A DNA stretch of 64,000 bases from positions 38,750 to 102,749 of IMG/VR virus record IMGVR_UViG_2833096052_000002. The stretch is one strand, 5' to 3'. The notes beneath the pieces were generated by a model that saw only the letters and a program-made list of their open reading frames with translations, was not told the DNA's origin and searched no databases. The position numbers and the translations under genes were made by a program. This stretch comes from a virus. Taxonomy: Duplodnaviria > Heunggongvirae > Uroviricota > Caudoviricetes. Of the stretch, positions 8,489-36,836 are shown piece by piece; position 1 is the first letter of the stretch, and the number at the start of each line of letters is the position of its first letter.

Positions 8489-8541
8489 ATTTGACCTCTC
8501 TTTCTTATCATCCGAAGGAATCTTCGGCTTACTGTTACTTT

Positions 8542-8952
8542 TTAATATTCAATATTACTTAAAAACTCTTCCAAAGTAACAACATCTTCATTATATTCAG
8601 AACCATCTTCTCTTTTAAACCATTTACCACCATCAATATGAACACCTATCATTACATTAATATTATCTAAGTTTGCTTCTATAATATCTTTGTAAATTGT
8701 TGTAATAAGCTCAACACCTTTCTTATCAAATGTAATATCATCGCAACGCACATTTAAAAGATTATCATCTAAAAATTCAGTATAGACATCACAGTTATCA
8801 TAATCAAAAACTTTATCATATAATGTTTCTTCCAATTCTTCACTATATTCATCTAATTCGTCTTCATCGCTAATATTTACTATTTCAATTGCAATTAATA
8901 ATTCCGCTTCTGTATTATCCTTTAGCTCAATTCCCTTAAATTTCATATTCAA
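8542..8952 (-). CDS. acidic hypothetical protein
   Basis: ORF track; very acidic composition. Confidence 0.4.
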   Translation of the reverse strand: MNMKFKGIELKDNTEAELLIAIEIVNISDEDELDEYSEELEETLYDKVFDYDNCDVYTEFLDDNLLNVRCDDITFDKKGVELITTIYKDIIEANLDNINVMIGVHIDGGKWFKREDGSEYNEDVVTLEEFLSNIEY

Positions 8953-9248
8953 TTATTCTCCTTTATTAATTCAAAATTTTACTCAATTTCTTCACAACTT
9001 CTTCGCAAAATCTATACAAACAAGTCTTCTTAAATGCTATTCTCAAATCATCAACAACTTGTCTATATTGCTGACATAATTCGTTGTCTATCATGTTATT
9101 CTCCGAATATTCATTATGTTATGCCCACTTACACCATATAAAGGGTTCGAACCTAGTACAGCCCCACTGACACATAAATCACCAACTAGTATCCACATTT
9201 ATGTCGTTGTTAATCTGAATTGAACAGCCCTACAATAATGAATCATCA

Positions 9249-10878: not shown

Positions 10879-11399
10879 ATTGTTTACCTCCTGTTAATTT
10901 ATTCTCCTATTCCATATTTTCTCAACCATTCTTTTTTGCTTAATGTGGTTACACCACGTTTCTTTTGTTGCTTCCATACTTTAATAGCATATTCTTTTGT
11001 CATTCCTGGCACTGGATAATGTATTACTGATTTTGAAATTGTATATGGTTTTCCTATAGAAATCATCTTCAACAAATCTAATAAATTAGTCATAAATATA
11101 TTCTCCTAATCCTCAATATACTTTATTTCTTCTAGTATCGAACTTCCTATTTTCTTTGGAATGTTCATCCAATATTTCATTATTTATTCTTTTACATTTA
11201 TTTAACCCCTTGGTATATCCAATCAAATATGTCATATAAGAAAAGCAGATTGATAAAATTAACCATAACACCATAAGTATAATTATATATTTAACCATTT
11301 CTTACCTCACAATCTCACAAGGAAATCTATGTTTCTTGGTAAAAATATTACTATATATAGTGTCTATGTTTTCTATAAACACTATATATAGTATGTTAT

Positions 11400-12140
11400 T
11401 TACATTTGATACACAAAACTTGGCATTGGCTGTAATTTAAACAGATTTTTCTCATGCATTGAATCAATTTTAGCTTTTACTTTCTTACTTGGCTCAATTC
11501 CATCTCTGATATATGCATCTAATTCAGCATAAGTAAATCCAAGGTTATCTTCATCTGTCTTGCCACAAAGACCATCAGTAGGTGTCTTATCAACTAATTC
11601 TGATGGAAGCCCTAATTCACGACCAATAGCTTTAACCTCTGTTACTGTAAGCTGAGATAACGGACTAAAATCACCAGCAGCGTCACCATATCTTGTGGCG
11701 TAACCCACCCAATCTTCTGAAAGATTACACGTATTTGCAACTCGACCATTCATAGACTGACTGACTGCATATAAAGTTGTCATTCTGATACGTGCAGGAA
11801 GATTTGTGGCAGTCTGTTCAGAAATATCATATCCATTAAAAGGAAGATTATTTAATACACCACATACTGCATCTTTGATATTCACCTCAAAATTTCTGAT
11901 ATCTAAAAATTCAACAAGTTTTCTAGCCATATCAATATCCGACTGTTCTCCATTCGGCATAAGTACACCAATTACTCTATCTTTTCCAAGAGCTTCTACA
12001 CACAGAGCAGCTACAACACTTGAGTCCTTGCCGCCTGAGATACCCACAACCGCCATACAGTCTTTACCGTTCTTCTCGAAGAAATCCTTAATCCACTGAA
12101 CGCAATCATTAGTTACTTTTTTTACATCAAAATTACTCAT
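11400..12140 (-). CDS. nadE: NH3-dependent NAD+ synthetase
   Basis: PP-loop VVGISGGKDSS; downstream ARIRMTTLYA...ANTCNLSEDWVGYATRYGD aligns with NadE consensus. Confidence 0.85.
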   Translation of the reverse strand: MSNFDVKKVTNDCVQWIKDFFEKNGKDCMAVVGISGGKDSSVVAALCVEALGKDRVIGVLMPNGEQSDIDMARKLVEFLDIRNFEVNIKDAVCGVLNNLPFNGYDISEQTATNLPARIRMTTLYAVSQSMNGRVANTCNLSEDWVGYATRYGDAAGDFSPLSQLTVTEVKAIGRELGLPSELVDKTPTDGLCGKTDEDNLGFTYAELDAYIRDGIEPSKKVKAKIDSMHEKNLFKLQPMPSFVYQM

Positions 12141-12546
12141 GTTTAATCTCCTCTCTAACTCTCATAAGAATTTTTCCTAAATTGTTTTCTCCAACACCAT
12201 TCACAGTTCCCCAAATTTTATCACCCCAAGTATTACCTTCTTCGAGATGCTGATTATCAGTCTCAAGTAACTTTGCTTTGAGCTTTAAATTTTGAGTAAA
12301 TTTCGCTTTTACAATTTCGTACATAACGTTGTACTTCACATCTTCCCAATCAGATCGAAGCTGAACTCTTCTACCAAGTTTCTTTGCAGATGATGGATCT
12401 AAATTCGTGAAACATTCTCTATCTGAAAAAGTTTTTGCTGATTGAAAAGCGGCTTCATTATTCAAATATGTAAGTCCTTCATATGTAACAGGAGAAGAAT
12501 AAAAGTTGCTTAAAAAATAATATTTACCTCTAAATTCATTTATCAT
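12133..12546 (-). CDS. NADAR (DUF1768/YbiA-like) domain protein
   Basis: YFLSNFYSSPV...EAAFQSAKT...WG...GxNxLGKILMRVREE matches NADAR family signature. Confidence 0.75.
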   Translation of the reverse strand: MINEFRGKYYFLSNFYSSPVTYEGLTYLNNEAAFQSAKTFSDRECFTNLDPSSAKKLGRRVQLRSDWEDVKYNVMYEIVKAKFTQNLKLKAKLLETDNQHLEEGNTWGDKIWGTVNGVGENNLGKILMRVREEIKHE

Positions 12547-13004
12547 CCTTTGTCAAGCCTCCATAATTCAACATTGCAATCATAAAAAATATTCTCTATC
12601 ATTTGATGTACTTCCTCCCAATTTGCACCGCCACGAACACATCCAATTTTATATGGCATTGCAATACTCATATTTTCTAAAACTGCATATGATTTCAAAT
12701 TTTCAAAACATTTTCTTAAAGCATCAATATCTGTATACTGTTTTCCGTCATAGCCATATGATTTTTGTGCAAATAAATTTGCATATATTCTTGCGTCAAT
12801 ATTAGACTGAAAATATCTAACAGAACCCAATAATTGTTCAGGTGTATTAATCGAACAAAAACTATGATAATCTTTATATACTTGCACATCATAATCACGG
12901 ATTGCTTTTGCAACACCAGAATTAAAAGCACCTTTGCAATTAACCTGGTGTGCAATAATATCAGTGTTCGAAGTGAGCAAGTCTCCATCAATAATTTTAA
13001 TCAT
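12543..13004 (-). CDS. Macro domain (ADP-ribose binding/hydrolase) protein
   Basis: DIIAHQVNCKGAFNSGVAKAI resembles macro-domain nucleotide-binding motif; start overlaps upstream stop (TAATG). Confidence 0.6.
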   Translation of the reverse strand: MIKIIDGDLLTSNTDIIAHQVNCKGAFNSGVAKAIRDYDVQVYKDYHSFCSINTPEQLLGSVRYFQSNIDARIYANLFAQKSYGYDGKQYTDIDALRKCFENLKSYAVLENMSIAMPYKIGCVRGGANWEEVHQMIENIFYDCNVELWRLDKG

Positions 13005-14464
13005 TACTTACCTCCGTACATTCTGTTTCTGATATCCGCAAATGTATCTTCTCTTACTAATTCTCCATCTTTAAATACGGTAGTAAGTAAACTGTTATCA
13101 CTTATTTCAAGTAACTGATCTTGACATTTTAATTCACCGTTATCATCGAATACTCTACAACATCCTTTATGAGATTTCTTTAAGTGACTTGTATCTGTCT
13201 TAGGATCTTTAAAAATCATTAGCTTCTTACCATCAATTACTCCATATGTAGCTTTCATTGCAATGCCAAAAGTATCTCTTGTAACAACAATCATCTTGCC
13301 GTTTTCAACGATTGCAGTGAAGCAAAAAGCTCCTACACCATAAGCAATATTATTAGCTGCGAAACCACGTTTTTCTAATTCTTTCCAAATAGTTTCTACA
13401 TTAGAAAGTGTGCAACCATCACCATAAATAATACCGATATGCGGATCTAATACCTTATAACCTTTACCATTTACAGAACCACCAAAAATCTCCCATAACC
13501 TTTCAACTGTCTTAACTGAAATCTCTACAATATCACCACTATCAGGACGAATTAAGAGCTTTCCATTATGATTCATAATCTCTTCTTTACACTGTGGAAG
13601 AATATTATTTACCATATTCCAATAATCATAAGTATCTGAAACCATACTAAATGATGTATTTGGATATAACTCTGTTAAAAGTCTCTTAACAAACGTAATC
13701 TCATCTCCATCAATTGAGAAATTAGCACCCATTACAGAATGCTCAGTTGAGACAGCACCGATTCCAATACCATTATTCTTACAATCGGCATTATAATATC
13801 TATCAATATAATTAATTGCTGGAATTGTAGATGTCTTATTAAATGAAAGCAACCATGATGCTGAACATCTTGTAGCTTCATCCATACAAGACATTCCTCT
13901 CATACCAAAATCTGCACAAGCCATATTTCCAGGCAACCCGTCTGTTGTCTTGTTATACCAATAATCTGCAATCTCACGATACATATGACCGATAGTTGCA
14001 TGACAACAAGGTTTCCATAATTCTACCTGAAGAATACATTCGATCCACTGAACAAGCCAAGCAAATTTATCATCCGTATTTGTAATCTCAATACAAGGAA
14101 CACCCATAGGAACAAGTGTGCCTTCTGGCAATGCTCTAATCTCAAGTGGTAAATATCCTAATCTGTGAAGCTCTACAATTTTATCTAAATCATAGTTGTC
14201 TCTACCAATCTGTACGTCCATCGAATCTGTATAAAGAGTTAGCATCTCATCTTCCGATAAATCGAAGAAATTTTTCTGAAAATATCCCATTAAATATTCT
14301 TTGATAAATGCCTGTAATCCAAAGAAAACCATTTCATTTTGATTCTCTAACATTGATTTTCGAGGCACCCAATACGATACTAACTTAGTTAATCCCTTCG
14401 GATACATACGATCATGACACTGTTTATAAGTATCTGATAATAATAAAGCCATTGTGTTATCCAT
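13004..14464 (-). CDS. nicotinamide phosphoribosyltransferase homolog (NAMPT/NadV-like; candidate Namat of NARP1)
   Basis: About 486-aa NAMPT-family sequence (LLSDTYKQCH..., GMRGMS..., GIIYGDG...). Probable start is the ATG at 14464 with GGAGG 9 nt upstream; the ORF-track start at 14506 is an upstream extension. Confidence 0.75.
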   Translation of the reverse strand: MDNTMALLLSDTYKQCHDRMYPKGLTKLVSYWVPRKSMLENQNEMVFFGLQAFIKEYLMGYFQKNFFDLSEDEMLTLYTDSMDVQIGRDNYDLDKIVELHRLGYLPLEIRALPEGTLVPMGVPCIEITNTDDKFAWLVQWIECILQVELWKPCCHATIGHMYREIADYWYNKTTDGLPGNMACADFGMRGMSCMDEATRCSASWLLSFNKTSTIPAINYIDRYYNADCKNNGIGIGAVSTEHSVMGANFSIDGDEITFVKRLLTELYPNTSFSMVSDTYDYWNMVNNILPQCKEEIMNHNGKLLIRPDSGDIVEISVKTVERLWEIFGGSVNGKGYKVLDPHIGIIYGDGCTLSNVETIWKELEKRGFAANNIAYGVGAFCFTAIVENGKMIVVTRDTFGIAMKATYGVIDGKKLMIFKDPKTDTSHLKKSHKGCCRVFDDNGELKCQDQLLEISDNSLLTTVFKDGELVREDTFADIRNRMYGGK

Positions 14465-14468
14465 AATT

Positions 14469-15305
14469 TTAAACCTCCATAACTGTAATTTTTTCATGAT
14501 TACCATTAAACAAACTGTTTGTAGTAAATAATCTGTTCACTGTATTATTCTCCAAAGACTTGATCAATGTTCCTTTTTCTTTATCAAGAATTGAATTCTC
14601 TGTATGAGTGGCATACGCATAAATCTCAGTTACACCATGTTTCTTCAATTCTTCTGCACTATAATAAAGTGAACCGCCATATGCGATAATATCATCAATC
14701 ATTAACACAGCTTTATCCTTCAAATCAATACCATTTGTTCTAATGTCTAATCCAAGGATTTTACCAGTCTTCCAATCTCTCTTCTTTTCACCATAACAAT
14801 ACGGCAACTCAGGGAATAAATCTGAATATCTCTTAGCTGCACCTGCATCTGGGAAATAAAGTACAAGATTTCTCATACCAATCTTTGAAATAGCTTTATC
14901 AACATACTCTTTTGGATTTTCTTTTACACAATTATTGAGTAATGCAGTAGAAACATCACTATGAGCATCTAAAACATAAACTGATGAAAATCCTAACCAA
15001 TTGATAAAATCGCAAAAATACTTCAGTGTGAATACTTCATCATCATTTTTTACTCTATCCATTCGTGCATTAGGAATATATGGAAGAGACAAATAATAAT
15101 CCACATTAGTAAAAAATCTTTCAAGATGTTTCCTTACTAACATCAGATAAAACATCTCATCGTTACTCTCATAAATCCATTCAATCCAAATGCAAGGAGA
15201 CCCATCATAAGAGTCTTCCTCAATGTTGTTTATATCAATATTTACTCTTGGTGTTCCATCTGGGAACTTGTTGATTGTTACAATTTCATTATTAATTTTA
15301 ATCAT
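14469..15305 (-). CDS. ribose-phosphate pyrophosphokinase homolog (PRS-like; candidate Adps of NARP1)
   Basis: PRPP-binding loop VLMIDDIIAYGGSL and LDAHSD region typical of PRPP synthetase family; 278 aa, shorter than canonical Prs. Confidence 0.7.
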   Translation of the reverse strand: MIKINNEIVTINKFPDGTPRVNIDINNIEEDSYDGSPCIWIEWIYESNDEMFYLMLVRKHLERFFTNVDYYLSLPYIPNARMDRVKNDDEVFTLKYFCDFINWLGFSSVYVLDAHSDVSTALLNNCVKENPKEYVDKAISKIGMRNLVLYFPDAGAAKRYSDLFPELPYCYGEKKRDWKTGKILGLDIRTNGIDLKDKAVLMIDDIIAYGGSLYYSAEELKKHGVTEIYAYATHTENSILDKEKGTLIKSLENNTVNRLFTTNSLFNGNHEKITVMEV

Positions 15306-15308
15306 GTT

Positions 15309-15821
15309 TTACTCTCCAATCACTTCGATCTGACACATCTTCATAGTTGCTAATGCAGCCTTGTGGGTATCAGGTGTGACACCTGCGCAACAGCTTGCAT
15401 CTACTGTAATATCAATCTCAGGATAATTTGCCCTGATAATAAGTGCATTTGAAACCACACAGATGTCGGTGCATAATCCGCAAACCTCAACACTTTCAAA
15501 TCCTAAATCCTTCCAGTTTAACCAACCGAATGTAGGCTTATCAATCAGAATATCGTTCTCAATATCAAAATCTAACTTATCGGAAATCTGCCAACCAATA
15601 GTATTCTTTACACAGTGAGTAACAGGAAGATGCTTACCTTCATATGTTTCTAAATAATTCTCAGGATGTGTGTCTCTTGTAAAAATTACCTGCTTACCAG
15701 CATCCTTATACTCCTTAATTTTCTTTGCTACATTTGATACAATCGCCTGTGCTTCCTTTGTACCAAGTGTTCCATCAATAAAATCATTCTGCATGTCTAC
15801 AACAATTAATGTTTCTCTCAT
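15309..15821 (-). CDS. isochorismatase-family cysteine hydrolase, nicotinamidase (PncA)-like
   Basis: LIVVDMQNDF start motif and catalytic-Cys segment VCGLCTDICV. Confidence 0.7.
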   Translation of the reverse strand: MRETLIVVDMQNDFIDGTLGTKEAQAIVSNVAKKIKEYKDAGKQVIFTRDTHPENYLETYEGKHLPVTHCVKNTIGWQISDKLDFDIENDILIDKPTFGWLNWKDLGFESVEVCGLCTDICVVSNALIIRANYPEIDITVDASCCAGVTPDTHKAALATMKMCQIEVIGE

Positions 15822-15939
15822 TTTGTTACCTCTTTTCTTTATTTTTATATGTATTTATTCTCTGAAAACTCAGAAGAAAAAAATATTTCATTTTACTTTT
15901 TTGGATAATTTGGCTGATCAGCCGTGAATAGAATTGCTT

Positions 15940-16128
15940 CTATATTAGATTATTCTCTACTCGAAACTTCTTTAATTCATCTTGAATCATCTTTTGTATA
16001 TCTTCTTTATCAAAAGATATATTTGCTACTGGAATAACATTTGCATTTGGATTAACTTCACCAACAATAGCTTCATCAAATACTTTTATAAACATTTCTG
16101 CAATTTCTTTTTCATAATTGCCACACAA
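15940..16128 (-). CDS. small hypothetical protein
   Basis: ORF track. Confidence 0.3.
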   Translation of the reverse strand: MCGNYEKEIAEMFIKVFDEAIVGEVNPNANVIPVANISFDKEDIQKMIQDELKKFRVENNLI

Positions 16129-16245
16129 TCCACTACAATCTATATCTGCAATTACTCTTGAAAAAAATCTTTGAACTTATCATCTATAAAATCTCGCTCG
16201 TATTCTCTTGGTATATCAATTGTTAATTTCACCATTTCACCTCAC

Positions 16246-16452
16246 TTATTCTCTGTATGGTTCAGGTAACGGCATCCAAGCTCTCATGCCTCCATTGATT
16301 CTTCCCCAATACCATGTCCCATCATAGTATTGCCTTTGCACTTTTGTTACCATTCCTCGATTTGTGGTAACAAGTACATTTATCACTTTCTTACCTTCAT
16401 ATCTTTTATCATCTTCTGGCATTTGCCCTTCGATACATTTAATCCATTCCAA
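16246..16452 (-). CDS. small Trp-rich hypothetical protein
   Basis: ORF track. Confidence 0.35.
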   Translation of the reverse strand: MEWIKCIEGQMPEDDKRYEGKKVINVLVTTNRGMVTKVQRQYYDGTWYWGRINGGMRAWMPLPEPYRE

Positions 16453-16465
16453 TTATTCTTTCACC

Positions 16466-17206
16466 TCACATCCATTTATCAATTTCACTAAACACATTAC
16501 CTAATGAATTAACAATCATCAAATCAGTTTCACCGTATAACAACACTTGAATTTTCTCTTTATTGATAACAACCAAATGTCTACCACTAAAATATGAAAT
16601 ATAATGAGCTGCTGGATAAACTTTTAATGAAGTGCCACCAATAATCAACATTTCAGCATCTCGAATAGCTCTGATTGCTCCATTTACAGCTTCATTAGGA
16701 AGATTCTCTCCGTATAAAGTCACATCAGGTCTAATCAGCCCACCACATTCACACTTTGGAACAGCATCTTTAGTGTTAAATAAGAAATCAGAATGATATT
16801 TCATCTTACACTTACTACAATAATTTCTCTGAGTAGTTCCATGAATCTCAAAGACATTCTTACTACCAGCTTTCTGATGAAGTCCATCAATGTTCTGTGT
16901 TACAATAGCTTTCAACTTGCCTACTTCTTCCATCTTAGCAAGTACCTTATGAGTAATATTTGGCTCAATATTTCTTGTATCCATCTTCTGCCGATAGAAC
17001 TCATAGAATACTTTCGGATTGTTGTATAAGCATTCTCGACTCAAAAGATACTCTGGCTCGTATCTATCAAACTGAACGTCATGCTGATTATATAATCCAT
17101 CCTTTGAACGGAAGTCAGGAATACCACTTTCAGTTGACACACCTGCTCCACCAAAAAATACAATATTGTTCGATTCTTCTATATATTCTCTTAATTTATC
17201 GTACAT
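16466..17206 (-). CDS. Sir2-family NAD+-dependent deacylase/ADP-ribosyltransferase
   Basis: GAGVSTESGIPDFRS, TQNIDGLH, HG and CSKC...CECGG zinc ribbon. Confidence 0.8.
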   Translation of the reverse strand: MYDKLREYIEESNNIVFFGGAGVSTESGIPDFRSKDGLYNQHDVQFDRYEPEYLLSRECLYNNPKVFYEFYRQKMDTRNIEPNITHKVLAKMEEVGKLKAIVTQNIDGLHQKAGSKNVFEIHGTTQRNYCSKCKMKYHSDFLFNTKDAVPKCECGGLIRPDVTLYGENLPNEAVNGAIRAIRDAEMLIIGGTSLKVYPAAHYISYFSGRHLVVINKEKIQVLLYGETDLMIVNSLGNVFSEIDKWM

Positions 17207-17212
17207 ATTACC

Positions 17213-17470
17213 TCACTCTATCATTTCAACTTTAATCCTAAATTTTGTTGTTTCTATATGTTCGTTTTCTTGATAAGGACAATTATAATCAAAGTGCTGA
17301 TGTTTAACAGTCGCAATCAAATGAGTATCATTACTAGAAACAAATTCCGTATCTGTTTCATAAGTATCTTCAGAACCATCACCAAGTTTAGAATCTGCAC
17401 AATATATCTGATTTGCGTCTAATGCATCTTGAATAATTCTGTAAATGTCTCCTGTATTATACATAGTCAC
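17213..17470 (-). CDS. small hypothetical protein
   Basis: ORF track. Confidence 0.35.
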   Translation of the reverse strand: MTMYNTGDIYRIIQDALDANQIYCADSKLGDGSEDTYETDTEFVSSNDTHLIATVKHQHFDYNCPYQENEHIETTKFRIKVEMIE

Positions 17471-17474
17471 TCCT

Positions 17475-18863
17475 TTAATACTCTATCAAACCATCTGTAA
17501 TACCAGTCATCCAATAAATAAGATCTTCTCTATCATTTTTTAATCTTCCATCTATTACACGAGTTAAGATTTCATTGAGCCAGTACCCAACCTCTTTTCC
17601 ACTTTTAATGAGCATTGTATCCATTACATCTTTTCCATTAACTGCTAAATCCTTTAAAGAAAAACATTCATCATCCTGTAAGACTTCTTCTAAAATATAT
17701 TCGATGTTATCAATCTTCTGTAATCTTATTTCCTGATTAATGTCTGCTTGTGCTTTAATATCGGCTCTACGAACATTTAATAATCTTCTAAACTGTTCTT
17801 CTCCGATTTTATTAAGCCATCTCTTGACATATTTCTTTCCCACCTCAAAAGTAGCATCATGATAATAGACTAATTCAACAACTTTTTCTCTCGTATCATT
17901 GTCAAATCTTAATCGCTTCATTATTTTATCAGTCATATCAGCACTGACTCTTCCATGACCTTTGAAATGTCTAATACCATCCTCGCCATCTTGATAACAA
18001 TGTAGCTTTCCAATATCATGAAAAAATACAGCCAATGATGTAATCAAATCTCTTGGATTCAAGTCTTCTTCACAATCACATTCATAAGCTTGTACTGCAT
18101 GTACTGTATGATTCCATACATCATAGATGTGATATGGATTATTCTGTGGAAAATCAAACATATCTTTTATTTCAGGAATAAACAATGATAATACATCGCC
18201 ATATAAAACCATCTGTACACAAAAATCACTCGATATAGCAATTTTACAGAACTCACTATTTATCCTCTCAACGGATATATTCTCTAAATTTTGATACATC
18301 TTGTGTAAAACATAATCTGTATTTGGTTCAAGAACAAAGCTTAACTGAGAAGCGAATCTAATGGCACGTAAAATTCTTAAAGCATCTTCAGCAAATCTAT
18401 CTTCTGGTTTACCAACACACTGAATTTTGTGATATTTTATATCTTCCATTCCATTAAACGGATCTACAAGACCAACTTCATCATTGTATGCCATCGCATT
18501 AATTGTAAAATCTCTACGCTTTAAATCCTCTTCAAGACTTCGTGTAAATGCAACACTGTCAGGTCTACGACTATCTGAGTAATTACCGTCAATTCTGTAA
18601 GTGGTACATTCATATCCTTCACCGTTAATTACAATAGTGATAGTTCCATGCTGCAATCCAGTTTCAATAATTCTCTTATCCTTGAATACTTCCATCATTT
18701 CATCTGGTGTGGCAGAAGTCGTAATGTCATAATCGTGAATTGGTCTGCCAAGAATACTATCTCTCACTGCACCGCCACATAAAAATGCCTCATATCCATT
18801 ACTCTGTAAAGTATGAATAATTTCATTTGCACCAGATGGAATTTTAATTTTCAATTTCTTCAT
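17475..18863 (-). CDS. cca: tRNA nucleotidyltransferase (CCA-adding enzyme) with HD domain
   Basis: GGAVRD...DxD polymerase-beta head, RRDFTINA, and HD motif FFHDIGK. Confidence 0.8.
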   Translation of the reverse strand: MKKLKIKIPSGANEIIHTLQSNGYEAFLCGGAVRDSILGRPIHDYDITTSATPDEMMEVFKDKRIIETGLQHGTITIVINGEGYECTTYRIDGNYSDSRRPDSVAFTRSLEEDLKRRDFTINAMAYNDEVGLVDPFNGMEDIKYHKIQCVGKPEDRFAEDALRILRAIRFASQLSFVLEPNTDYVLHKMYQNLENISVERINSEFCKIAISSDFCVQMVLYGDVLSLFIPEIKDMFDFPQNNPYHIYDVWNHTVHAVQAYECDCEEDLNPRDLITSLAVFFHDIGKLHCYQDGEDGIRHFKGHGRVSADMTDKIMKRLRFDNDTREKVVELVYYHDATFEVGKKYVKRWLNKIGEEQFRRLLNVRRADIKAQADINQEIRLQKIDNIEYILEEVLQDDECFSLKDLAVNGKDVMDTMLIKSGKEVGYWLNEILTRVIDGRLKNDREDLIYWMTGITDGLIEY

Positions 18864-19806
18864 TCAAATTCACCTCAATTTTTGGTTCATCAATAAACTT
18901 TGCCAATAGTCCTTCATGGTAGAATACCTTGTCACTTTCAGTAATTTCTTCTCCCAAGAAATATCTAAGTACGAATGGCATCATATAGTTGTCTAAACAT
19001 TTGAACTCAATACTATATTCTCCATTTTCTTTGTAGATTTTTTTACAGTATCCGTCAGTACCATTGATTTTGTGGAGCGAAAATAATTCAACTCTGAATG
19101 GAATATTAGATTTTGTACTTAATCTTTCTTCAACACAATTTCTCACAAGACTTAACATGTGCAAATTACTTGCCGTTGTCATATCATAAACAATCTCATC
19201 ATTTGAAAAGAATACAATTCTCTCTTCACCAATGATGTCATATAATAACGATAATGTCTGATCCATAAGGTACTTTTCATAGGTGATATGTCTTTTAGGA
19301 TTACAATTACCAAGAATAACCTGGCGAACATATTTACTATTTGCAATATGTTCGTTATCCGTGAATTGAGAAATAAAATCTTCCCATGTATCAGTCCCAC
19401 GAAATATATTCTTATCATATTCGTGTAAAGATGAAAAATTAGCCTTTCTCATATCAATACTTATAAAAACTCTTCCAGTATTAGTTGGCTTAAATATGTC
19501 TTTATTAGATAAATTTTTATGAATCACAGTGAATTTATTCATATCTTCCGCATTAAATCTCTGATATGCTTCTGACTCCTTGATACTTGTAATAGCTGCA
19601 TCCTTTACATGATTATATTCTTCAAAATAATCCTGCTCACAATTATACCCCTGTAATTCACTTGCAAATATAATCCACTTGTCAACAGTTCCATAGAATT
19701 CATCAAAAAGCTTAATTCTATCTAAAAAATATGGCTCTTGGAATAATCTAATTGGTATATTGCAATCCTTACAGAATCTTTCTTTTGCTCTATTTGATAT
19801 TTCCAT
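18844..19806 (-). CDS. hypothetical protein (320 aa)
   Basis: ORF track. Confidence 0.45.
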   Translation of the reverse strand: MEISNRAKERFCKDCNIPIRLFQEPYFLDRIKLFDEFYGTVDKWIIFASELQGYNCEQDYFEEYNHVKDAAITSIKESEAYQRFNAEDMNKFTVIHKNLSNKDIFKPTNTGRVFISIDMRKANFSSLHEYDKNIFRGTDTWEDFISQFTDNEHIANSKYVRQVILGNCNPKRHITYEKYLMDQTLSLLYDIIGEERIVFFSNDEIVYDMTTASNLHMLSLVRNCVEERLSTKSNIPFRVELFSLHKINGTDGYCKKIYKENGEYSIEFKCLDNYMMPFVLRYFLGEEITESDKVFYHEGLLAKFIDEPKIEVNLNEEIEN

Positions 19807-24922: not shown

Positions 24923-25672
24923 TTACTTATTACCTCTCTGTCTCTTCATATCATCAAGGATCTGACGAGCATTGCGCTCTCTTTCAGAATTAGCAAGTCT
25001 TCTCTCATTTGCCTGTGCGCTAGAATCATATGCAATTCTACTTCCTTCTGCACGTTCTCTTGTCTTTCTTGCTCCTTCACGAACTCTTTCAAGCATTCTA
25101 TCGCTCTCATTATTCGTATTAAGACTATCCATACTCTGATGAAGTTCGATAATCTGACTATCGGCTTCCATCTGAAAAAGAACCTGTTCCTTTTCCTCTT
25201 TAAGTTTCTGCAATTCTTCGGCTGCCTGATCACGAATGTCTTTCTGGTGAGCCTGTGCTTCTTTCATCTCTTCGATTGTATCTTTTAGTACATTAATCTT
25301 ATTCTCCAAAGTAGACTTCTTCATTGCATACTGCATTGCTTCATTTTCTTTATTTTCATCAAGACAAGCATTAATCTGCTGTGTAACACGCATAATATCT
25401 TTATTTGCCTGATATAAATCCTTTTCTGCTGTATCACGCTTTCCTGAAATTTCAGCATATGTAGCAGATGCCTTGTTATAAAAATCTTCCTTTTCTCTAA
25501 TGGCTGCGTTGTAATAATCTCTAGCACCTTCTGGTGTCTGTGCATCCTGACGCATTACTTCATCCGTTCTTCCTTTAAACTTTACTCGAAGCTGTTTACC
25601 AAAAGGAGTAAAGAAAAGAATCAGTGCAATTAATACAATCGCCACAATTATAATAAACATAAAATTTGTCAT
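24923..25672 (-). CDS. membrane-anchored coiled-coil protein, PspA/IM30-like
   Basis: N-terminal TM (FMFIIIVAIVLIALILFF) then long charged coiled coil with PspA-like periodicity. Confidence 0.35.
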   Translation of the reverse strand: MTNFMFIIIVAIVLIALILFFTPFGKQLRVKFKGRTDEVMRQDAQTPEGARDYYNAAIREKEDFYNKASATYAEISGKRDTAEKDLYQANKDIMRVTQQINACLDENKENEAMQYAMKKSTLENKINVLKDTIEEMKEAQAHQKDIRDQAAEELQKLKEEKEQVLFQMEADSQIIELHQSMDSLNTNNESDRMLERVREGARKTRERAEGSRIAYDSSAQANERRLANSERERNARQILDDMKRQRGNK

Positions 25673-25681
25673 ACAATCCTC

Positions 25682-26263
25682 CTACTCTGCATCAATTCCA
25701 TACTGATTACATAGTGCCTTTAATCCACCGTTATAGCCACTTCCTACAGCCTTAAACTTCCATTCACCATTATGTTTATAAATTTCAGCTACGACTAACG
25801 CAGTCTCGGTAGAGAAGTCTTCACTTAAATCAAAACGAATAAGCTCCTCGCCTGTCTCTTCGTCTACTACACGCACATATGCGTTTCCAACCATACCGAA
25901 GTTCTGAAGTCTACTCTCAGCATCATAAATTGTGACCGTCACAGCAAGAGTCTCATAGTCTGATGGGATTTTATCAAGTTTAATCTTAATAACCTCATCA
26001 TCTCCATCTCCCTCACCTGTACGATTATCTCCCATATGCTTTACACTCTTTGAACTATGTTCAAGATTACCATAGAAAATGAAATCCTCATCCTTGCCAA
26101 CCTTGCCATTCTCTTTTGTCATAAACACAGAGGCATCGAGATCAAAATCTGCTTCTCCATCATAATGATTAATATCCCATCCAAGTCCAACAAGAATGTT
26201 TTTTAATGATGGTCTACCCTTTGTTAAATCTACTCTCTGTCCTTTACTTAACGAAACTGACAT
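25682..26263 (-). CDS. TerD-family protein (paralog 1)
   Basis: MSVSLSKGQRVDLTK...LGWD...DFDLDASVF...GDNRTGEGDGDDEVI. Confidence 0.8.
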   Translation of the reverse strand: MSVSLSKGQRVDLTKGRPSLKNILVGLGWDINHYDGEADFDLDASVFMTKENGKVGKDEDFIFYGNLEHSSKSVKHMGDNRTGEGDGDDEVIKIKLDKIPSDYETLAVTVTIYDAESRLQNFGMVGNAYVRVVDEETGEELIRFDLSEDFSTETALVVAEIYKHNGEWKFKAVGSGYNGGLKALCNQYGIDAE

Positions 26264-26275
26264 AATTAAATCCTC

Positions 26276-26851
26276 CTACTTGTATCTTCTTATTAATTCG
26301 CTAACACTTGAATCATTTGTTCCCTGACCGATAGCGTTAAATTTCCACTCTCCGTCTTTCTTATAAACCTCTGCAAATACCATTGCTGTCTTACCAGCAT
26401 AATCATCTGAAAGATTGTATTTACAAATTTCCTTACCAGTTGACTCATCAACAAGTCTAATGTACGCATTCTTGATAAGTCCAAAATCCTGCTTTCTTGA
26501 AGTGCAATCATAGATATTTACTACAAATACAATCTTCTCAACCTTATTTGTAATATTCGCAAGGTCAACTGTAATCTGCTCATCATCGCCGTCTCCATCT
26601 CCTGTGAGGTTGTCGCCATGATGATACACACATCTATCTTCTGCTGATCTGTCACCATAATAAACACATGTACGATACTTATCATCTTTTCCTAAAATAA
26701 TTGCTGAAGCATCGCAATCAATGTTTGGCTTAGAATTAAAAAATCCTTTCTTAACAGCATCCCATCCAAGTCCTACCATAATCTTTGTAAGACCACCTGC
26801 TACTTCCTTAGATAAATTAATTTTCTGTCCTTTGACTAAATTTACTGACAT
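26276..26851 (-). CDS. TerD-family protein (paralog 2)
   Basis: MSVNLVKGQKINLSK...GLGWD...GDNLTGDGDGDDEQI. Confidence 0.8.
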   Translation of the reverse strand: MSVNLVKGQKINLSKEVAGGLTKIMVGLGWDAVKKGFFNSKPNIDCDASAIILGKDDKYRTCVYYGDRSAEDRCVYHHGDNLTGDGDGDDEQITVDLANITNKVEKIVFVVNIYDCTSRKQDFGLIKNAYIRLVDESTGKEICKYNLSDDYAGKTAMVFAEVYKKDGEWKFNAIGQGTNDSSVSELIRRYK

Positions 26852-26869
26852 ATATATTCTCCTTCCACT

Positions 26870-27484
26870 TTATAAATCCAGACCAAAATTTCTACCAATA
26901 GCAGCTAAACCACCATTGTAACCTGAACCAACTGCATTAAACTTCCATTCACCGTTCTTACGATACAACTCACCTGCAATAACACCTGTCTCTAATGAGA
27001 AATCCTCATTAAGTTCATATTTGAAAAGTTCCTCATTTGTATCAGCGTTGTATGCTCTAATGTACGAATTATCAACCATTCCGAAATTCTGTAAACGATT
27101 TTCTGCATCATAAATTGTCGCTGAGAAGCTAATCTTTGTAATATTAGATGGAATCTTATTTAACTCAACAATCATTGTCTCGTCATCGCCATCACCTACA
27201 CCTGTTCTATTATCACCAGAATAAATCAATGCTCCACTTGGATGCTGTGGCTGACCATAAAATACGAAATCTTGTTCGCCTGTTACCTTTCCTGAATCAT
27301 CGGTAAAAAATGCTGACACATCCAAATCAAAATCTGCATTACCATCGTATCTATTTGTATCCCATCCAAGACCAAATACGACTTTGTTTAAACCTGCATT
27401 GCCTTTTGTAAGGTCAATCTTCTGACCTTTAACTAAACTAATTGACATATTATTTTTCCTCCTTATTCTTGGGAAGGCTGTCAA
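26870..27484 (-). CDS. TerD-family protein (paralog 3)
   Basis: ISLVKGQKIDLTK...GLGWD...DFDLDVSAF...GDNRTGVGDGDDETM. Confidence 0.8.
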   Translation of the reverse strand: MTAFPRIRRKNNMSISLVKGQKIDLTKGNAGLNKVVFGLGWDTNRYDGNADFDLDVSAFFTDDSGKVTGEQDFVFYGQPQHPSGALIYSGDNRTGVGDGDDETMIVELNKIPSNITKISFSATIYDAENRLQNFGMVDNSYIRAYNADTNEELFKYELNEDFSLETGVIAGELYRKNGEWKFNAVGSGYNGGLAAIGRNFGLDL

Positions 27485-27641
27485 CCTTCCCTTTTAATAA
27501 TTTAAAAGAAATTGGGAATGTGAGTAACGTTAGAAAAATAAATGGAATAAAGCGTGTAATACATGCTACAACAACACTAATTGAAAAACATATAAGAGTA
27601 ATAATCTCTACTGTTTTATAACTTTTATCTCTCATTACCAT
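27450..27641 (-). CDS. small two-TM membrane protein
   Basis: hydrophobic 63-aa ORF between ATPase and TerD genes. Confidence 0.35.
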   Translation of the reverse strand: MVMRDKSYKTVEIITLICFSISVVVACITRFIPFIFLTLLTFPISFKLLKGKVDSLPKNKEEK

Positions 27642-27657
27642 ATTCTCATCTCCTCAA

Positions 27658-30258
27658 TTACTTATTCTCTCTTTTTTTCTCAATAATCTTTCTAATAAGA
27701 TCAATTGGAATAACCATAAACGCTAGAATTACAACTACTACCCAATGTTTGAAATCTAAAGCTGTGACCTTAATAAGATTTTCTGCAAAATTGCAAAGAG
27801 CAAACGTCATTACAAAAATTCCAATTGCAATGGCTGAAAATAACTTGTTCTTTCCAATGCCATTGAATAAATTAATATGCTCTGTACGAATGTTAAATCC
27901 ATTAAATACCGCCATGAAGCATAATAAAGCAAATCTCGCTGTTATAGCTTCTGTCTCAGTCACAAACATATTAGCAATTGGGCTAAATGTAATAATTCCA
28001 TAGAGTGCAATAAATGCTACTGTACTAATTGCAATACGTTTCTTTGCTCCTCTTATGAATAAGCCAGAACCTTTCTTGATAGGTTTCTCTGTCATATACT
28101 CATCTTTTGGAGGTTCACCACCAAATGATAATGAATTAAGAGAGTCCATAATGATATTTACAATCAGAATCTGAACCGATGCGAGTAATGCACCTGTTGC
28201 AATCATTGGATAAATAACACTAAGAATCAGAAGTGAAATATTGATAGGTAACTGGAATTCAAGAAACATCATAATATTGTGCATAAATGTTCTTCCAAGT
28301 TCTACTGCCTTTACAACGCTTGCAAAGTTATCATCTGTTAATACAATGTCTGAAGCTTCTTTTGCCACATCTGATCCACCTTGCATACCAAAACCCACAT
28401 CAGCTCTCTTTAAAGCAGGACTATCATTTACACCATCACCTGTCATTGCAACTGACTTTCCAATCTCTTGTGCTAATGTGACAAGTCTGAGTTTTGTGTT
28501 TGGTGAGCATCTTGAAATAACTCTCAATCGAGGAATTATACTCTTTACTTCATCATCTGACATCGCTTCAAATTCATCATTTGTAAGTGCTAAATCTCCA
28601 TCTTTGTAAATTCCACACTCTGTAGCAACTGCAACTGCTGTCTCAATACAATCGCCTGTAATTTCAATAACTTGAATACCAGCCTTATGTGCTATTTTTA
28701 CTGCACTCGGTACTTCATCTCTTACAGGATCTACAACACCAATAATTCCAAGGAATGTCATGTCATTTGGTATTTCATTCTCTACTAAATCACCATCTGC
28801 CATTGTAACTGCAATGCATCTCATCGCATTACTTGTCATTGCTGTAATTGCATTACTTAATGTGTCATTGTCGTTATTCTCTATAATTTCACCATTTGAG
28901 TCCATTACTTTTGTGCAATGCTCAATCAGTTTCTCAGGTGCGCCCTTATAATATGTAATTCCATCATTTGTTGTAAAAGCTGAATACTTATTACTACTAT
29001 TAAATACCTGCTTTAACCTAACTGGATATTTTTTCTGAATGTCAACATATGTTTCAGGATTTACAAGGCTAAGAACTGCTCTATCAATTGAATTACCACC
29101 TGTAATATTGTTTTCTGAATCAAATGTTGCACTATTATTTAAAGAAATGTTTGCCTTGATATTATTCCAAAGAACTGAATCCTTATTTACATCATTACCA
29201 AAGCCATCAATAATCTTCTTTGGAGTCATAATACCTGTCGTAAGAGTACCTGTCTTATCAGTACAGATAATATCAACATATGCTAACTCTGGAATTTTAC
29301 CAGGATTCTTAGCAAGAATATTGAATTTCTCCATCGTCTTTACATTTTGTTTTGTTACAAGTTTTACAATAAGAGGCAATCCTTCGGGAACAGCAGCTAC
29401 AATAATTGTTAATGCTACTGAGAAGTTCTGTGCGATTTTCTGAATAATATTCAGAACACCACCGCTAAAATATTCTCCAAATCCAACCTGTACAATTCCT
29501 GAAATTGTAAGTACCGCAAATGTAATAACGGCTGCGATTGTTCCCCACTTAGAAATGAAGTCGCTCAGATTATCAAGTGCAATATCAAGTGCTGTCTTTG
29601 GTGCTTCGAGTGTTTGCATTTTAACAAGTGTATCACCATTTACTGTATTTACACCTACATCAGTAACAATCATTTTTCCTTCGTCTGACATTACTGTTGT
29701 ACCAGCAAATAAGCAATTCTGATTCGTATAAGCATCTGTTGAAGTAGTTTTCTTATGAACGTATCCTTCAATTGGTGTTTTCTTGACCTCTTTTGTCTCA
29801 CCATTAATTGCAGCGTTGTTGACTGAAATTTTACCATCAACAAGATATCCATCTGCAAAAATTTCCTGTCCCATTCCGATACAACCGAGATCGCCAACTA
29901 CCAATTCATCCTTGTTAATTGTTTGAACTTTGCCATCACGAATTACATCACAATACCTGACTGATGTTTTGGCTCTCAACTCTGCTGCTGATTTTTGAAC
30001 ACCAAGTCCAGTCTTAACAGCAATACATGTTACAATTGCTAATACAACAAGAATCATAATTGGATCTGATAAATCCATTACCCCCATGACTCCAAGGAAT
30101 AACTGCAATACTGCAATTGCAATAAGAATCATTGTGATTTTCTCACTTAATGCCTTCTTTGCGAAGTCATACCACTTGTCCAACTTTGGTTCAGGAAGCT
30201 TATTACTTCCATGTAGTTCTCTACTTTTGAGAACTTCTTTACTACTCAATCCATTCAT
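27658..30258 (-). CDS. P-type cation-transporting ATPase, Ca2+-ATPase (type II) like
   Basis: phosphorylation motif ICTDKTGTLT, PEGLP in M4, KGAPE, DPVRDEV, hinge TGDGVNDSPALKRADVGFGM; 866 aa. Confidence 0.85.
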   Translation of the reverse strand: MNGLSSKEVLKSRELHGSNKLPEPKLDKWYDFAKKALSEKITMILIAIAVLQLFLGVMGVMDLSDPIMILVVLAIVTCIAVKTGLGVQKSAAELRAKTSVRYCDVIRDGKVQTINKDELVVGDLGCIGMGQEIFADGYLVDGKISVNNAAINGETKEVKKTPIEGYVHKKTTSTDAYTNQNCLFAGTTVMSDEGKMIVTDVGVNTVNGDTLVKMQTLEAPKTALDIALDNLSDFISKWGTIAAVITFAVLTISGIVQVGFGEYFSGGVLNIIQKIAQNFSVALTIIVAAVPEGLPLIVKLVTKQNVKTMEKFNILAKNPGKIPELAYVDIICTDKTGTLTTGIMTPKKIIDGFGNDVNKDSVLWNNIKANISLNNSATFDSENNITGGNSIDRAVLSLVNPETYVDIQKKYPVRLKQVFNSSNKYSAFTTNDGITYYKGAPEKLIEHCTKVMDSNGEIIENNDNDTLSNAITAMTSNAMRCIAVTMADGDLVENEIPNDMTFLGIIGVVDPVRDEVPSAVKIAHKAGIQVIEITGDCIETAVAVATECGIYKDGDLALTNDEFEAMSDDEVKSIIPRLRVISRCSPNTKLRLVTLAQEIGKSVAMTGDGVNDSPALKRADVGFGMQGGSDVAKEASDIVLTDDNFASVVKAVELGRTFMHNIMMFLEFQLPINISLLILSVIYPMIATGALLASVQILIVNIIMDSLNSLSFGGEPPKDEYMTEKPIKKGSGLFIRGAKKRIAISTVAFIALYGIITFSPIANMFVTETEAITARFALLCFMAVFNGFNIRTEHINLFNGIGKNKLFSAIAIGIFVMTFALCNFAENLIKVTALDFKHWVVVVILAFMVIPIDLIRKIIEKKRENK

Positions 30259-31434: not shown

Positions 31435-31509
31435 CTAGGCTGGTGGGACTTGAACCCACAAAACCTGCGGTCAAAGCGCAGTGCGTCTAACCAATTCCGC
31501 CACAGCCCA
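31435..31509 (-). tRNA. tRNA-Gln (anticodon UUG)
   Basis: Minus-strand cloverleaf: acceptor TGGGCTG/CAGCCTA with U1:A72 and G73 discriminator, anticodon arm CTGCG-CTTTGAC-CGCAG, T-arm GTGGG-TTCAAGT-CCCAC; CCA not encoded. Confidence 0.7.
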
Positions 31510-36630: not shown

Positions 36631-36764
36631 ATCCATCCGTTAGTGGATTAAACTATGGTAGAACTATAGCAACTACACATTCTGCTCTTACAAGGCAATA
36701 TGTATGTACAAAGAAACAAGTACCTTGCGTTCTGCACTTACATCGGGTGTGATTCAGTGCATAG

Positions 36765-36836
36765 CAGAGCTAGTTGGATTCGAACCAACGAATACAGCAG
36801 TCAAAGTGCTGTGCCTTACCGCTTGGCGATAGCCCT
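36765..36836 (-). tRNA. tRNA-Gln (anticodon UUG), second copy with different sequence
   Basis: AGGGCTA TC GCCAAGCGGTAAGGC A CAGCA-CTTTGAC-TGCTG TATTC GTTGG-TTCGAAT-CCAAC TAGCTCT G; D-arm identical to bacterial tRNA-Gln; A1:U72. Confidence 0.8.

Follow-up and report, generated by a model that had tools for sequence, protein, structure and literature searches.

A phage operon joining a NARP1-type gene pair to a nicotinamidase and an NAD+ synthetase: a predicted route to NAD+ through nicotinic acid

The present study concerns a six-gene operon found in a stretch of 64,000 nucleotides from a virus of the class Caudoviricetes (IMG/VR record IMGVR_UViG_2833096052_000002, positions 38,750 to 102,749), hereafter referred to as the window. 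The core of the operon is a pair of adjacent genes coding for homologues of phosphoribosyl pyrophosphate (PRPP) synthetase (Prs) and of nicotinamide phosphoribosyltransferase (NAMPT). Such a pair is reminiscent of NAD+ reconstitution pathway 1 (NARP1) of phages, made of the enzymes Adps and Namat (Osterman et al., 2024, bioRxiv 10.1101/2024.02.11.579819), the latter being known from the structures 9W5W/9W5X (Lan et al., 2026, PMC12774641). Here, the pair is accompanied by genes for a nicotinamidase (PncA) and an NH3-dependent NAD+ synthetase (NadE), and the nicotinamide pocket of the Namat-like enzyme is altered. These features make it probable, in our view, that the operon represents a deamidated NARP1, which would rebuild NAD+ from ADP-ribose (ADPR) and nicotinamide, the products of defence NADases, by way of nicotinic acid.

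In the proposed pathway, PncA would convert nicotinamide into nicotinate and NH3, while Adps would convert ADPR and ATP into ADPR-pyrophosphate (ADPR-PP) and AMP. The Namat-like enzyme, in which the amide-binding Asp is lost and a Ser and a Lys are gained, would then join nicotinate to ADPR-PP, yielding nicotinic acid adenine dinucleotide (NaAD) and pyrophosphate. Finally, NadE would form NAD+ from NaAD, ATP and NH3. The NH3 produced by the first reaction would balance that consumed by the last one, NadE being devoid of a glutaminase domain. NaAD is an accepted substrate of NadE, and it is never made by canonical NARP1. Two further products of the operon, a Macro-domain and a NADAR-domain protein, would be optional feeders, freeing ADPR from modified forms. 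On balance, we also lean, by a small step beyond neutrality, towards a broader proposal. The Namat-like enzyme would be a nicotinate ADP-ribosyltransferase (nicotinate + ADPR-PP -> NaAD), a new activity that would make PncA-Adps-'Naat'-NadE the fourth pathway of NAD+ reconstitution, a deamidated one. This pathway would be common in large phages of apparently human-associated metagenomes, and it would be found also on Clostridium chromosomes. 'Naat' would have arisen from Namat by loss of Asp215 together with gain of Ser242 and of a Lys/Arg at 213 or 184, the clamp having been rebuilt around a beta-hairpin in the lineage of the window.

The two core genes lie where the original prediction, made from the same DNA, had located them, and their coordinates match those of the open reading frames (ORFs; Table 1). 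The Prs-like protein contains VLMIDDIIAYGGSL. The longest reading of the NAMPT-like ORF is 13004..14506 (500 residues); the form of 486 residues begins at the ATG at 14464, a start also used by homologues of 486-488 residues. As had been noticed from the sequence, the ribosome-binding site of the second gene is inside the 3' end of the first: ATGGAGGTTTAAAATTATGGATAAC puts GGAGG within the last codons, M-E-V-stop. This GGAGG is 9 nucleotides 5' of the NAMPT-like ATG, and a gap of 4 nucleotides separates the stop of the first gene from the start of the second. In Pfam, the Prs-like protein matches PF00156 and, weakly, PF14572, and the NAMPT-like protein PF18127 and PF04095. The corresponding PHROGs are phrog_619 (1e-64) and phrog_448 (7e-162).

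By its motifs and scores, the first enzyme is assigned to the Adps clade and not to housekeeping Prs. A hidden Markov model (HMM) trained exclusively on the Adps of canonical NARP1 loci (72 sequences) gives it 240 bits, and E. coli Prs (EcPrs) 136. On the Prs model TIGR01251, it scores 90.5 bits, below the cutoff of 113, as does the validated SPbetaL1 Adps (106). Its identity is 36-39% to the validated Adps of P. foliorum (pfAdps) and of SPbetaL1 and 25% to EcPrs, and its closest solved Prs relative reaches just 51 bits. The motifs FTLKY, PHSDV and FPDAGAAKRY, as well as a three-residue TH-xEN-SI insert, are common to the window protein, SPbetaL1 Adps and pfAdps and are not found in EcPrs. The equivalent of the catalytic Lys of SPbetaL1 (K162) is kept, GEKKRDW being aligned with GHKQRNF. 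Validated Adps gives no product with ribose-5-phosphate (bioRxiv 10.1101/2024.02.11.579819).

The second enzyme falls on the Namat side. Its bit scores are 391 to Namat (9W5W/9W5X), 309 to H. ducreyi NadV (HdNadV) and 190 to human NAMPT, and a Foldseek search with its AlphaFold2 (AF2) model (predicted template modelling score 0.81) ranks Namat chains in all of the first seven places. A neighbour-joining (NJ) tree was built from 141 near-full-length sequences, comprising the window protein, SPbetaL1 Namat, the protein of locus L007 and sequences that stand for the nearest clusters at 50% identity; the window protein is nested in the Namat radiation, beside the SPbetaL1 group. Scores on the curated equivalogs of nicotinate phosphoribosyltransferase (NAPRT), TIGR01513 and NF009131, are about 24-25 bits for cutoffs of about 300. 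An hhalign alignment of the Namat family with E. coli PncB, aimed at the residue of true NAPRTs at position 215, covers only the C-terminal third, with a probability of 10%, and is uninformative. The NCBIfam model NF006629, named 'nicotinate phosphoribosyltransferase', does match; since validated Namat scores higher on it (594 bits), the NAPRT label does not discriminate. Thus the NARP1-like pairing, and the phylogenetic placement suggested as its check, are upheld on both sides, by the NJ tree for the Namat-like protein, which is not of the NadV/NAMPT type, and by HMM scores and identity for Adps.

It had also been reported that no NMN adenylyltransferase was visible, and this is confirmed at the family level. 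Among 71 ORFs scanned in the window, which is part of a phage of about 150 kb, no PF01467-type NMN or nicotinic acid mononucleotide (NaMN) adenylyltransferase was detected, nor any NadD-like family, Nudix, PnuC or NadR protein. This set comprises 61 minus-strand ORFs of at least 100 residues, five plus-strand ORFs (112-208 residues) and five small minus-strand ORFs (61-85 residues). A direct route to the dinucleotide needs no enzyme that would be missing from the window. A true Prs/NadV pair, corresponding to the classical NadV+NatV route or to NARP2, was rejected as a reading, and so was a housekeeping salvage operon borne by a prophage.

The original prediction held that sequence alone could not distinguish a NAMPT/Prs pair from the Namat/Adps variants. 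This does not stand, because the determinants published for Namat (Lan et al., PMC12774641) can be read from the sequence, and three of them fail here. Residues are numbered below as in SPbetaL1 Namat unless the human enzyme is stated. The catalytic core is kept (D13, Y15, F189, R192, H245, R306, D308, G360, D361 and T398-R399-D400). The pocket of the window protein has M184, A187, K213, S215, G239 and S242, that is, the changes D215S, A242S, H187A and G213K with respect to SPbetaL1. The first determinant to fail is Asp215, which makes a hydrogen bond with the amide of nicotinamide and is replaced by Ser. In human NAMPT, the equivalent Asp219 binds the amide in the same way and defines the specificity for nicotinamide, and the D219S mutation switches substrate affinity (PMC7096376; PMC4919578, Table 2; PMC12143786). 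In SPbetaL1 Namat, D215A lowers the activity 8-fold (PMC12774641). The second is the third residue of the clamp loop (SCL), an Arg, Lys or Tyr involved in adenine stacking, where the window protein has Met in place of Arg40; most other switch-type relatives, as defined below, keep Arg at this position. The third is the SCH signature GSX-phi-X-phi-X-phi-TRD, in which positions 3 and 7 are aromatic: GSFTYQYNTRD becomes GAFCFT-AIVENGKMI-VVTRD, with Ala at position 2 (A391 for Ser391), Phe retained at positions 3 and 5, and no aromatic residue before TRD. Hence F392 is kept and the equivalent of Tyr396 is missing. Mutational data indicate that R40A/Y396K lowers the activity of SPbetaL1 Namat 2.4-fold and that, in combination, loss of F392 has the largest effect (PMC12774641). 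The insertion of nine residues, AIVENGKMI, is modelled by AF2 as a beta-hairpin (residues 384-393) with moderate confidence. The 120 closest homologues (71-98% identity) all share it, and Ser215 and the SML clamp-loop motif occur in every one of them that the pattern scan matched.

The association of these pocket changes with PncA and NadE was then followed in about 360 loci with 10-kb flanks, drawn from IMG/VR, GTDB genomes and JGI metagenomes and annotated with HMMs grown from the window proteins. Among near-full-length representatives, residues 215 and 242 co-vary: D/A is found in 91 sequences (canonical), [A/S/V]/S in 44 (switch type) and A/G in two, and the six other sequences include D/G (2), E/A (2) and K/D (1, NAMPT-like outgroup). 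Asp215 is invariant in the canonical representatives (93/93), is absent from all 45 switch-type representatives and never occurs together with PncA. Genomic context was counted within 10 kb in a set of 328 loci. Of those having a flank of at least 4 kb, switch-type loci have PncA in 182/183 cases and NadE in 177/183, and none of 92 canonical loci has either gene. The pattern persists after clustering at 90% identity (PncA 48/49, NadE 44/49; canonical with either, 0/68) and at 70% identity (PncA 10/10, NadE 9/10; canonical with either, 0/33). For the 70%-identity clusters, the Fisher test gives 5e-10 for PncA and 2e-8 for NadE. Neither PncA nor NadE lies near the validated systems of SPbetaL1 and P. 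foliorum, both of which are canonical. PncA is met in three places relative to the core, and it is co-directional in each of them. The order is PncA-Adps-Namat-...-NadE in loci like that of the window, Adps-PncA-Namat-NadE in genomes of Clostridium, and Adps-Namat-Macro-NadE-PncA in loci of the MT835544 type.

A complementary view is obtained by sorting 127 dereplicated Namat sequences according to PncA context only, residue states not being presupposed. Of about 480 columns, 187, 215 and 242 separate the two groups best, and 184, 240, 239 and 185 come next. According to an alignment of SPbetaL1 Namat with human NAMPT, these correspond to human H191, D219 and A244, then Y188, V242, S241 and K189. 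In the human enzyme, H191, A244 and G217 (equivalent to 213) are sites of inhibitor resistance and D219 binds the amide. As judged from this alignment, the discriminating columns map to the nicotinamide pocket and its tunnel, three of them (H191, D219 and A244) being established pocket or tunnel residues. In addition, a single Lys/Arg at either 184 or 213 is found in 44 of the 51 PncA-linked enzymes, as compared with 1/76 of the others, and no PncA-linked enzyme has both. Such a residue could serve as a newly gained, positively charged partner of a carboxylate. The loss of an acidic residue and the gain of one basic residue, by two alternative routes, is what would presumably be needed for a pocket that took a neutral amide to accept a carboxylate instead.

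In the NJ tree, the switch types form essentially one clade. In its basal members, which come largely from Clostridium genomes (L248-L266), R40 and the canonical clamp, GSYTYQYNTRD, are still present. These Clostridium and related genomes, on chromosomes or contigs, have the four-gene cassette Adps-PncA-Namat-NadE, with A215/S242 in Namat; basal switch loci have PncA, and NadE is nearby in about half of them. The co-existence of PncA with an intact canonical clamp in the basal relatives counts as support for a route from ADPR-PP and nicotinate. A derived subclade has clamp insertions of 6-26 residues, and the lineage of the window has additionally lost R40 and Ser391. One switch-type sequence (P0248) is placed apart, among canonical Namat. 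The viral-contig scan yielded no close relatives of it, and three were recovered in the metagenome scan (53-57% identity), all with Adps-Namat-NadE; one of these loci (L336) has a divergent PncA-like gene scoring 50 bits, and in another (L335) a doubtful candidate with 29 bits is encoded by the other strand at a distance of 4 kb. Two observations bear on the architecture of the family. Switch-type homologues of 646 residues have an additional C-terminal domain of about 160 residues fused to Namat (L087, 9992..11944; P0087, P0113-P0120). Many cluster representatives (among P0122-P0270) have 550-1114 residues and are matched by the query in 2-4 stretches, mostly broken near 310-320, which suggests intein-like or other large insertions.

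Several points weigh against the nicotinate route. Because the switch types are essentially one clade, the association with PncA and NadE may trace back to a single ancestral event, and the Fisher tests overstate independence; what the co-occurrence statistics show is, for the most part, that the genes have stayed together for a long time since one origin, and not that they came together repeatedly. In the window enzyme itself, neither the clamp Arg40 nor an equivalent of Tyr396 is present and Ser391 is replaced by Ala, so that the use of ADPR-PP can be asserted with less confidence than for relatives of the Clostridium type. In the AF2 model, the pocket loops have predicted local distance difference test (pLDDT) values below 50 at 187-192, 240-247 and 378-381, so that the positions of K213 and M184 are uncertain. 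Of the two closest solved relatives of NadE, the second (3FIU) is the Francisella NMN synthetase, which acts on NaMN. The route is also costly, with two ATP consumed, and its advantage is a matter of conjecture: in hosts with an active nicotinamidase, nicotinate and not nicotinamide might be the pyridine left available. Lastly, we infer every substrate and product of the pathway in the switch clade from sequence.

In view of these points, other explanations have to be considered. An unlikely one is that the operon boosts a PRPP-based Preiss-Handler pathway. The Prs-like enzyme would make PRPP and the NAMPT-like enzyme NaMN, host NadD and phage NadE completing the synthesis, or NadE acting as an NMN synthetase. 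The pocket switch would suit nicotinate and PRPP equally well, Namat keeps activity with PRPP in vitro (bioRxiv 10.1101/2024.02.11.579819; PMC12774641), two of the three adenine-stacking clamp residues are gone from the window enzyme, the clamp motif of which has an insertion, and NadE resembles 3FIU. On the other hand, the Prs-like protein has Adps-specific motifs and scores as Adps, not as Prs, and validated Adps is inactive on ribose-5-phosphate. Moreover, the ADPR-PP clamp is complete in the basal switch-type relatives, the window enzyme retains F392, and an adenylyltransferase would be required, of which there is none in the window.

We regard as quite unlikely the possibility that the system is a canonical NARP1 with bystanders, producing NAD+ directly from ADPR and nicotinamide while PncA and NadE stimulate the host Preiss-Handler pathway in parallel, the pocket changes then being drift or tuning. 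The architecture and clade membership of the pair, an otherwise intact catalytic core and the tendency of phages to gather NAD-related genes in islands (PMC9503650) would agree with it. Nevertheless, it is hard to reconcile with an Asp that is invariant in canonical enzymes, missing from all switch types and never found with PncA, the more so as D215A costs SPbetaL1 Namat most of its activity, nor does it account for the fact that the columns most strongly linked to context fall in the nicotinamide pocket. A parallel booster would also leave unexplained why PncA and NadE are strictly linked to one subclade in spite of rearrangements and are absent beside the Asp type. Very improbable, finally, is a main role other than NAD+ restoration, such as the removal of nicotinamide or of ADPR-derived immune signals, or the production of NaAD or another pyridine dinucleotide analogue as end product or decoy. 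Macro, NADAR and the nearby Sir2 all handle ADPR derivatives, and other NARP1 accessories degrade signals (bioRxiv 10.64898/2026.05.28.727677); yet Macro and NADAR are dispensable across the relatives, and the almost invariable presence of NadE, whose product is NAD+, as the last gene points to NAD+ as the end product. A deamidated NARP1 is the reading that we find the most probable.

Direct observations comprise which genes are present and in what order, the families to which they are assigned, the states of the residues and the statistics of co-occurrence. The pair is not the two-gene unit originally described; it is the core of an operon of six minus-strand genes that abut or overlap, in the order PncA, Adps, Namat-like, Macro, NADAR, NadE, followed by a terminator (Table 1). 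The terminator-like hairpin is likely an intrinsic terminator marking the end of the operon. The leader upstream of PncA is the presumed promoter region. A scan for promoter consensus sequences found sites no more common than in shuffled sequence, so that the promoter is inferred only.

Table 1. Coordinates of the operon and of other features in the window
Feature	Position	Strand	Remarks
AT-rich leader, 118 bp	15822..15939	-	5' of PncA; AAGAGG 7 nt before PncA ATG; presumed operon promoter region
Nicotinamidase (PncA-like, isochorismatase fold), 170 aa	15309..15821	-	PF00857 3.8e-30
Adps-like ADP-ribose pyrophosphokinase (predicted), Prs homologue, 278 aa	14469..15305	-	HMM scores, motifs
Namat-like transferase, 486 aa	13004..14464	-	Similarity to Namat 9W5W/9W5X
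Macro-domain protein, 153 aa, TARG1/DarG/Poa1p-like class	12543..13004	-	phrog_335 'phosphatase' 7e-39
NADAR-domain protein, 137 aa	12133..12546	-	PF08719 5e-27; TIGR02464 78.9 bits (cutoff 73.7)
NH3-dependent NAD+ synthetase NadE, 246 aa	11400..12140	-	PF02540 1.4e-54; TIGR00552 186.7 bits (cutoff 63.65)
Terminator-like hairpin, unusually long 19-bp stem, AT-rich, T-rich tail	11349..11393	-	Begins 7 nt past NadE stop
CobB-like Sir2 NAD-dependent deacylase	16466..17206	-	PF02146 3e-56; NF001752 305.8 bits (cutoff 221)
CCA-adding tRNA nucleotidyltransferase with HD domain	17475..18863	-	Upstream of Sir2
P-type cation ATPase, TerD and PspA-like block	24923..30258	-	
tRNA-Gln(UUG)	31435..31509	-	
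tRNA-Gln(UUG)	36764..36836	-	

The enzymes at the two ends of the operon are typical members of their families. The closest solved relative of PncA is the pyrazinamidase/nicotinamidase of P. horikoshii (1IM5, 65.7 bits), with which it shares VVDMQNDF (Asp), TRDTHPEN...HCV (Asp/His/His) and DK plus CGLCTDICV (Lys, Cys), residues that we take to be the Asp-Lys-Cys triad and the Asp/His/His metal site. NadE is a single-domain protein, without the glutaminase (CN-hydrolase) domain, and its closest solved relatives are the NH3-dependent NAD synthetases 2E18, then 3FIU. In relatives 84% identical to the window (L001-L004), a gene of 215 residues with a faint radical-SAM match is inserted between PncA and Adps (about 8499..9146).

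Concerning the accessory genes, the Macro protein matches DarG-type macro domains (47 bits) and, among solved structures, BT1257 and TARG1, the likeness to Poa1p being marginal (E 0.03-0.08). It is possibly an ADPR-1''-phosphate phosphatase (Adpp-like) or another ADPR-releasing hydrolase. In a similar manner, NADAR possibly frees ADPR from ADP-ribosylated substrates. In the case of NARP1, free ADPR is fed in by the Macro phosphatase Adpp (bioRxiv 10.64898/2026.01.28.702374) and by RyDEP. Macro and NADAR are optional, being present in only some of the related cassettes. PADLOC returned matches to DarG-like (for Macro) and PDC-M42C (for NADAR) only, and none for the core genes. NADAR also occurs near canonical NARP1 in Bacteroidota genomes and near phage NadV/NadM (Iyer et al., 2022), and it may be a general accessory of NARP1. 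In Bacteroidota chromosomes of GTDB, a distance of several kb often separates adps from namat in systems of the canonical type (D215/A242; L272, L279, L286, L290, L295, L304-L307, L313, L315 and others), and NADAR, Macro and Sir2 are frequent companions of the two genes. In the window, the Sir2 gene stands 0.65 kb upstream of the operon, outside the core; only a few related loci have Sir2 within 10 kb of the cassette, and a minority have it inside (L093, L096, L352). A sirtuin uses up NAD+ and gives nicotinamide and O-acyl-ADPR, the latter of which could be turned into ADPR by the Macro domain.

The window as a whole is AT-rich (GC about 32%) and transcribed almost wholly from the minus strand. 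Megablast of the region 11000-19000 against INPHARED gave no match, hence no near-identical deposited phage relative; near-identical copies occur on IMG/VR viral contigs of 90-170 kb, and relatives 84-90% identical on metagenome contigs of 238-356 kb. Further along the window, a P-type cation ATPase (866 residues), three tandem TerD genes and a PspA-like gene make up a stress or ion-homeostasis block, also present in a 356-kb relative (L005). The two tRNA-Gln genes are 5 kb apart, and in many close relatives the gene for the CCA-adding enzyme is conserved at a distance of a few kb from the cassette. Other products of the window fall in the MazF/PemK-like, phage integrase, GmrSD_N, D12 adenine methylase, RlaP, Band_7 and superinfection-exclusion gp17 families.

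Comparison with known systems helps to delineate what is specific here. As in NARP1, the system is phage-borne, an Adps-clade gene is immediately 5' of a Namat-clade gene and translationally coupled to it, the core is conserved and no NMN adenylyltransferase accompanies the pair in the window. The differences with NARP1 reside in Ser at 215 with A242S, H187A and G213K, in Met at Arg40, in the nine-residue hairpin of the clamp motif, in the obligate linkage to PncA and NadE and in the predicted product of the transferase, NaAD instead of NAD+. NARP1-AP, in which NARP1 is joined to the Macro phosphatase Adpp (bioRxiv 10.64898/2026.01.28.702374), likewise calls to mind the Macro gene found directly after the Namat-like gene, with its PHROG annotation of 'phosphatase'; however, the DarG/TARG1-type resemblance of the window Macro is better than its marginal one to Poa1p, and Macro is optional whereas PncA and NadE are not. 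NARP2 (NadV/Nampt and Nmnat, Vibrio phage KVP40) and NARP3 (PnuC and NadR, PMC13464706) share with the present system, as its genes would suggest, a phage-encoded restoration of NAD+ in the face of NAD-depleting defence, but the window has no adenylyltransferase, PnuC or NadR, and its transferase belongs to the Namat clade, not to that of KVP40 Nampt. A metabolic parallel would be the bacterial Preiss-Handler pathway (PncA-PncB-NadD-NadE), where nicotinamide is deamidated first and NadE amidates last. Here, Adps and the Namat-like enzyme take the place of PncB and NadD, and would transfer the complete ADP-ribosyl group at once, the nucleotide half being derived from ADPR and not from PRPP and ATP. 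As for the pocket, human NAMPT D219S has Ser for Asp at the same position and, according to the accounts given of Khan et al. (2006) in PMC4919578 and PMC7096376, a changed pyridine preference. Unlike this mutant, the window protein is a natural enzyme of an ADPR-PP-using lineage, with further coupled changes in the pocket (S242, K213 or K/R184, loss of H187).

In the openly searchable literature, subscription papers lying outside it, the systems described are NARP1, NARP1-AP, NARP2, NARP3 and RyDEP, and we found no paper linking NARP1 with a nicotinamidase or NadE; a search for NARP1 with 'nicotinic acid' led only to the NARP3 paper (PMC13464706), the mechanism of which is unrelated, and the study of Iyer et al. 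(2022) does not speak of nicotinamidase or of NadE. The best match of the lineage in INPHARED is 54% identical and the others at most 44%, and this near absence from deposited phage genomes would explain why surveys based on INPHARED missed it. A transferase forming NaAD is predicted to be a new enzyme activity.

NARP1 is the main known means by which phages undo the depletion of NAD+ by Thoeris, DSR, SIR2-HerA, SEFIR and related defences. If the present proposal is true, a new reaction would be added to NAD metabolism, the formation of NaAD straight from ADPR-PP, and the occurrence of nicotinamidase and NadE in these phages would be accounted for. An annotation rule would follow, based on residues 215 and 242 plus one Lys/Arg at 184 or 213, for proteins now labelled NAMPT or NAPRT. 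The natural variants of the specificity switch would be of use for enzyme engineering. Finally, a deamidated NARP1 would suggest a counter-defence adapted to hosts that rapidly deamidate nicotinamide, that is, to bacteria using the Preiss-Handler pathway such as Clostridia.

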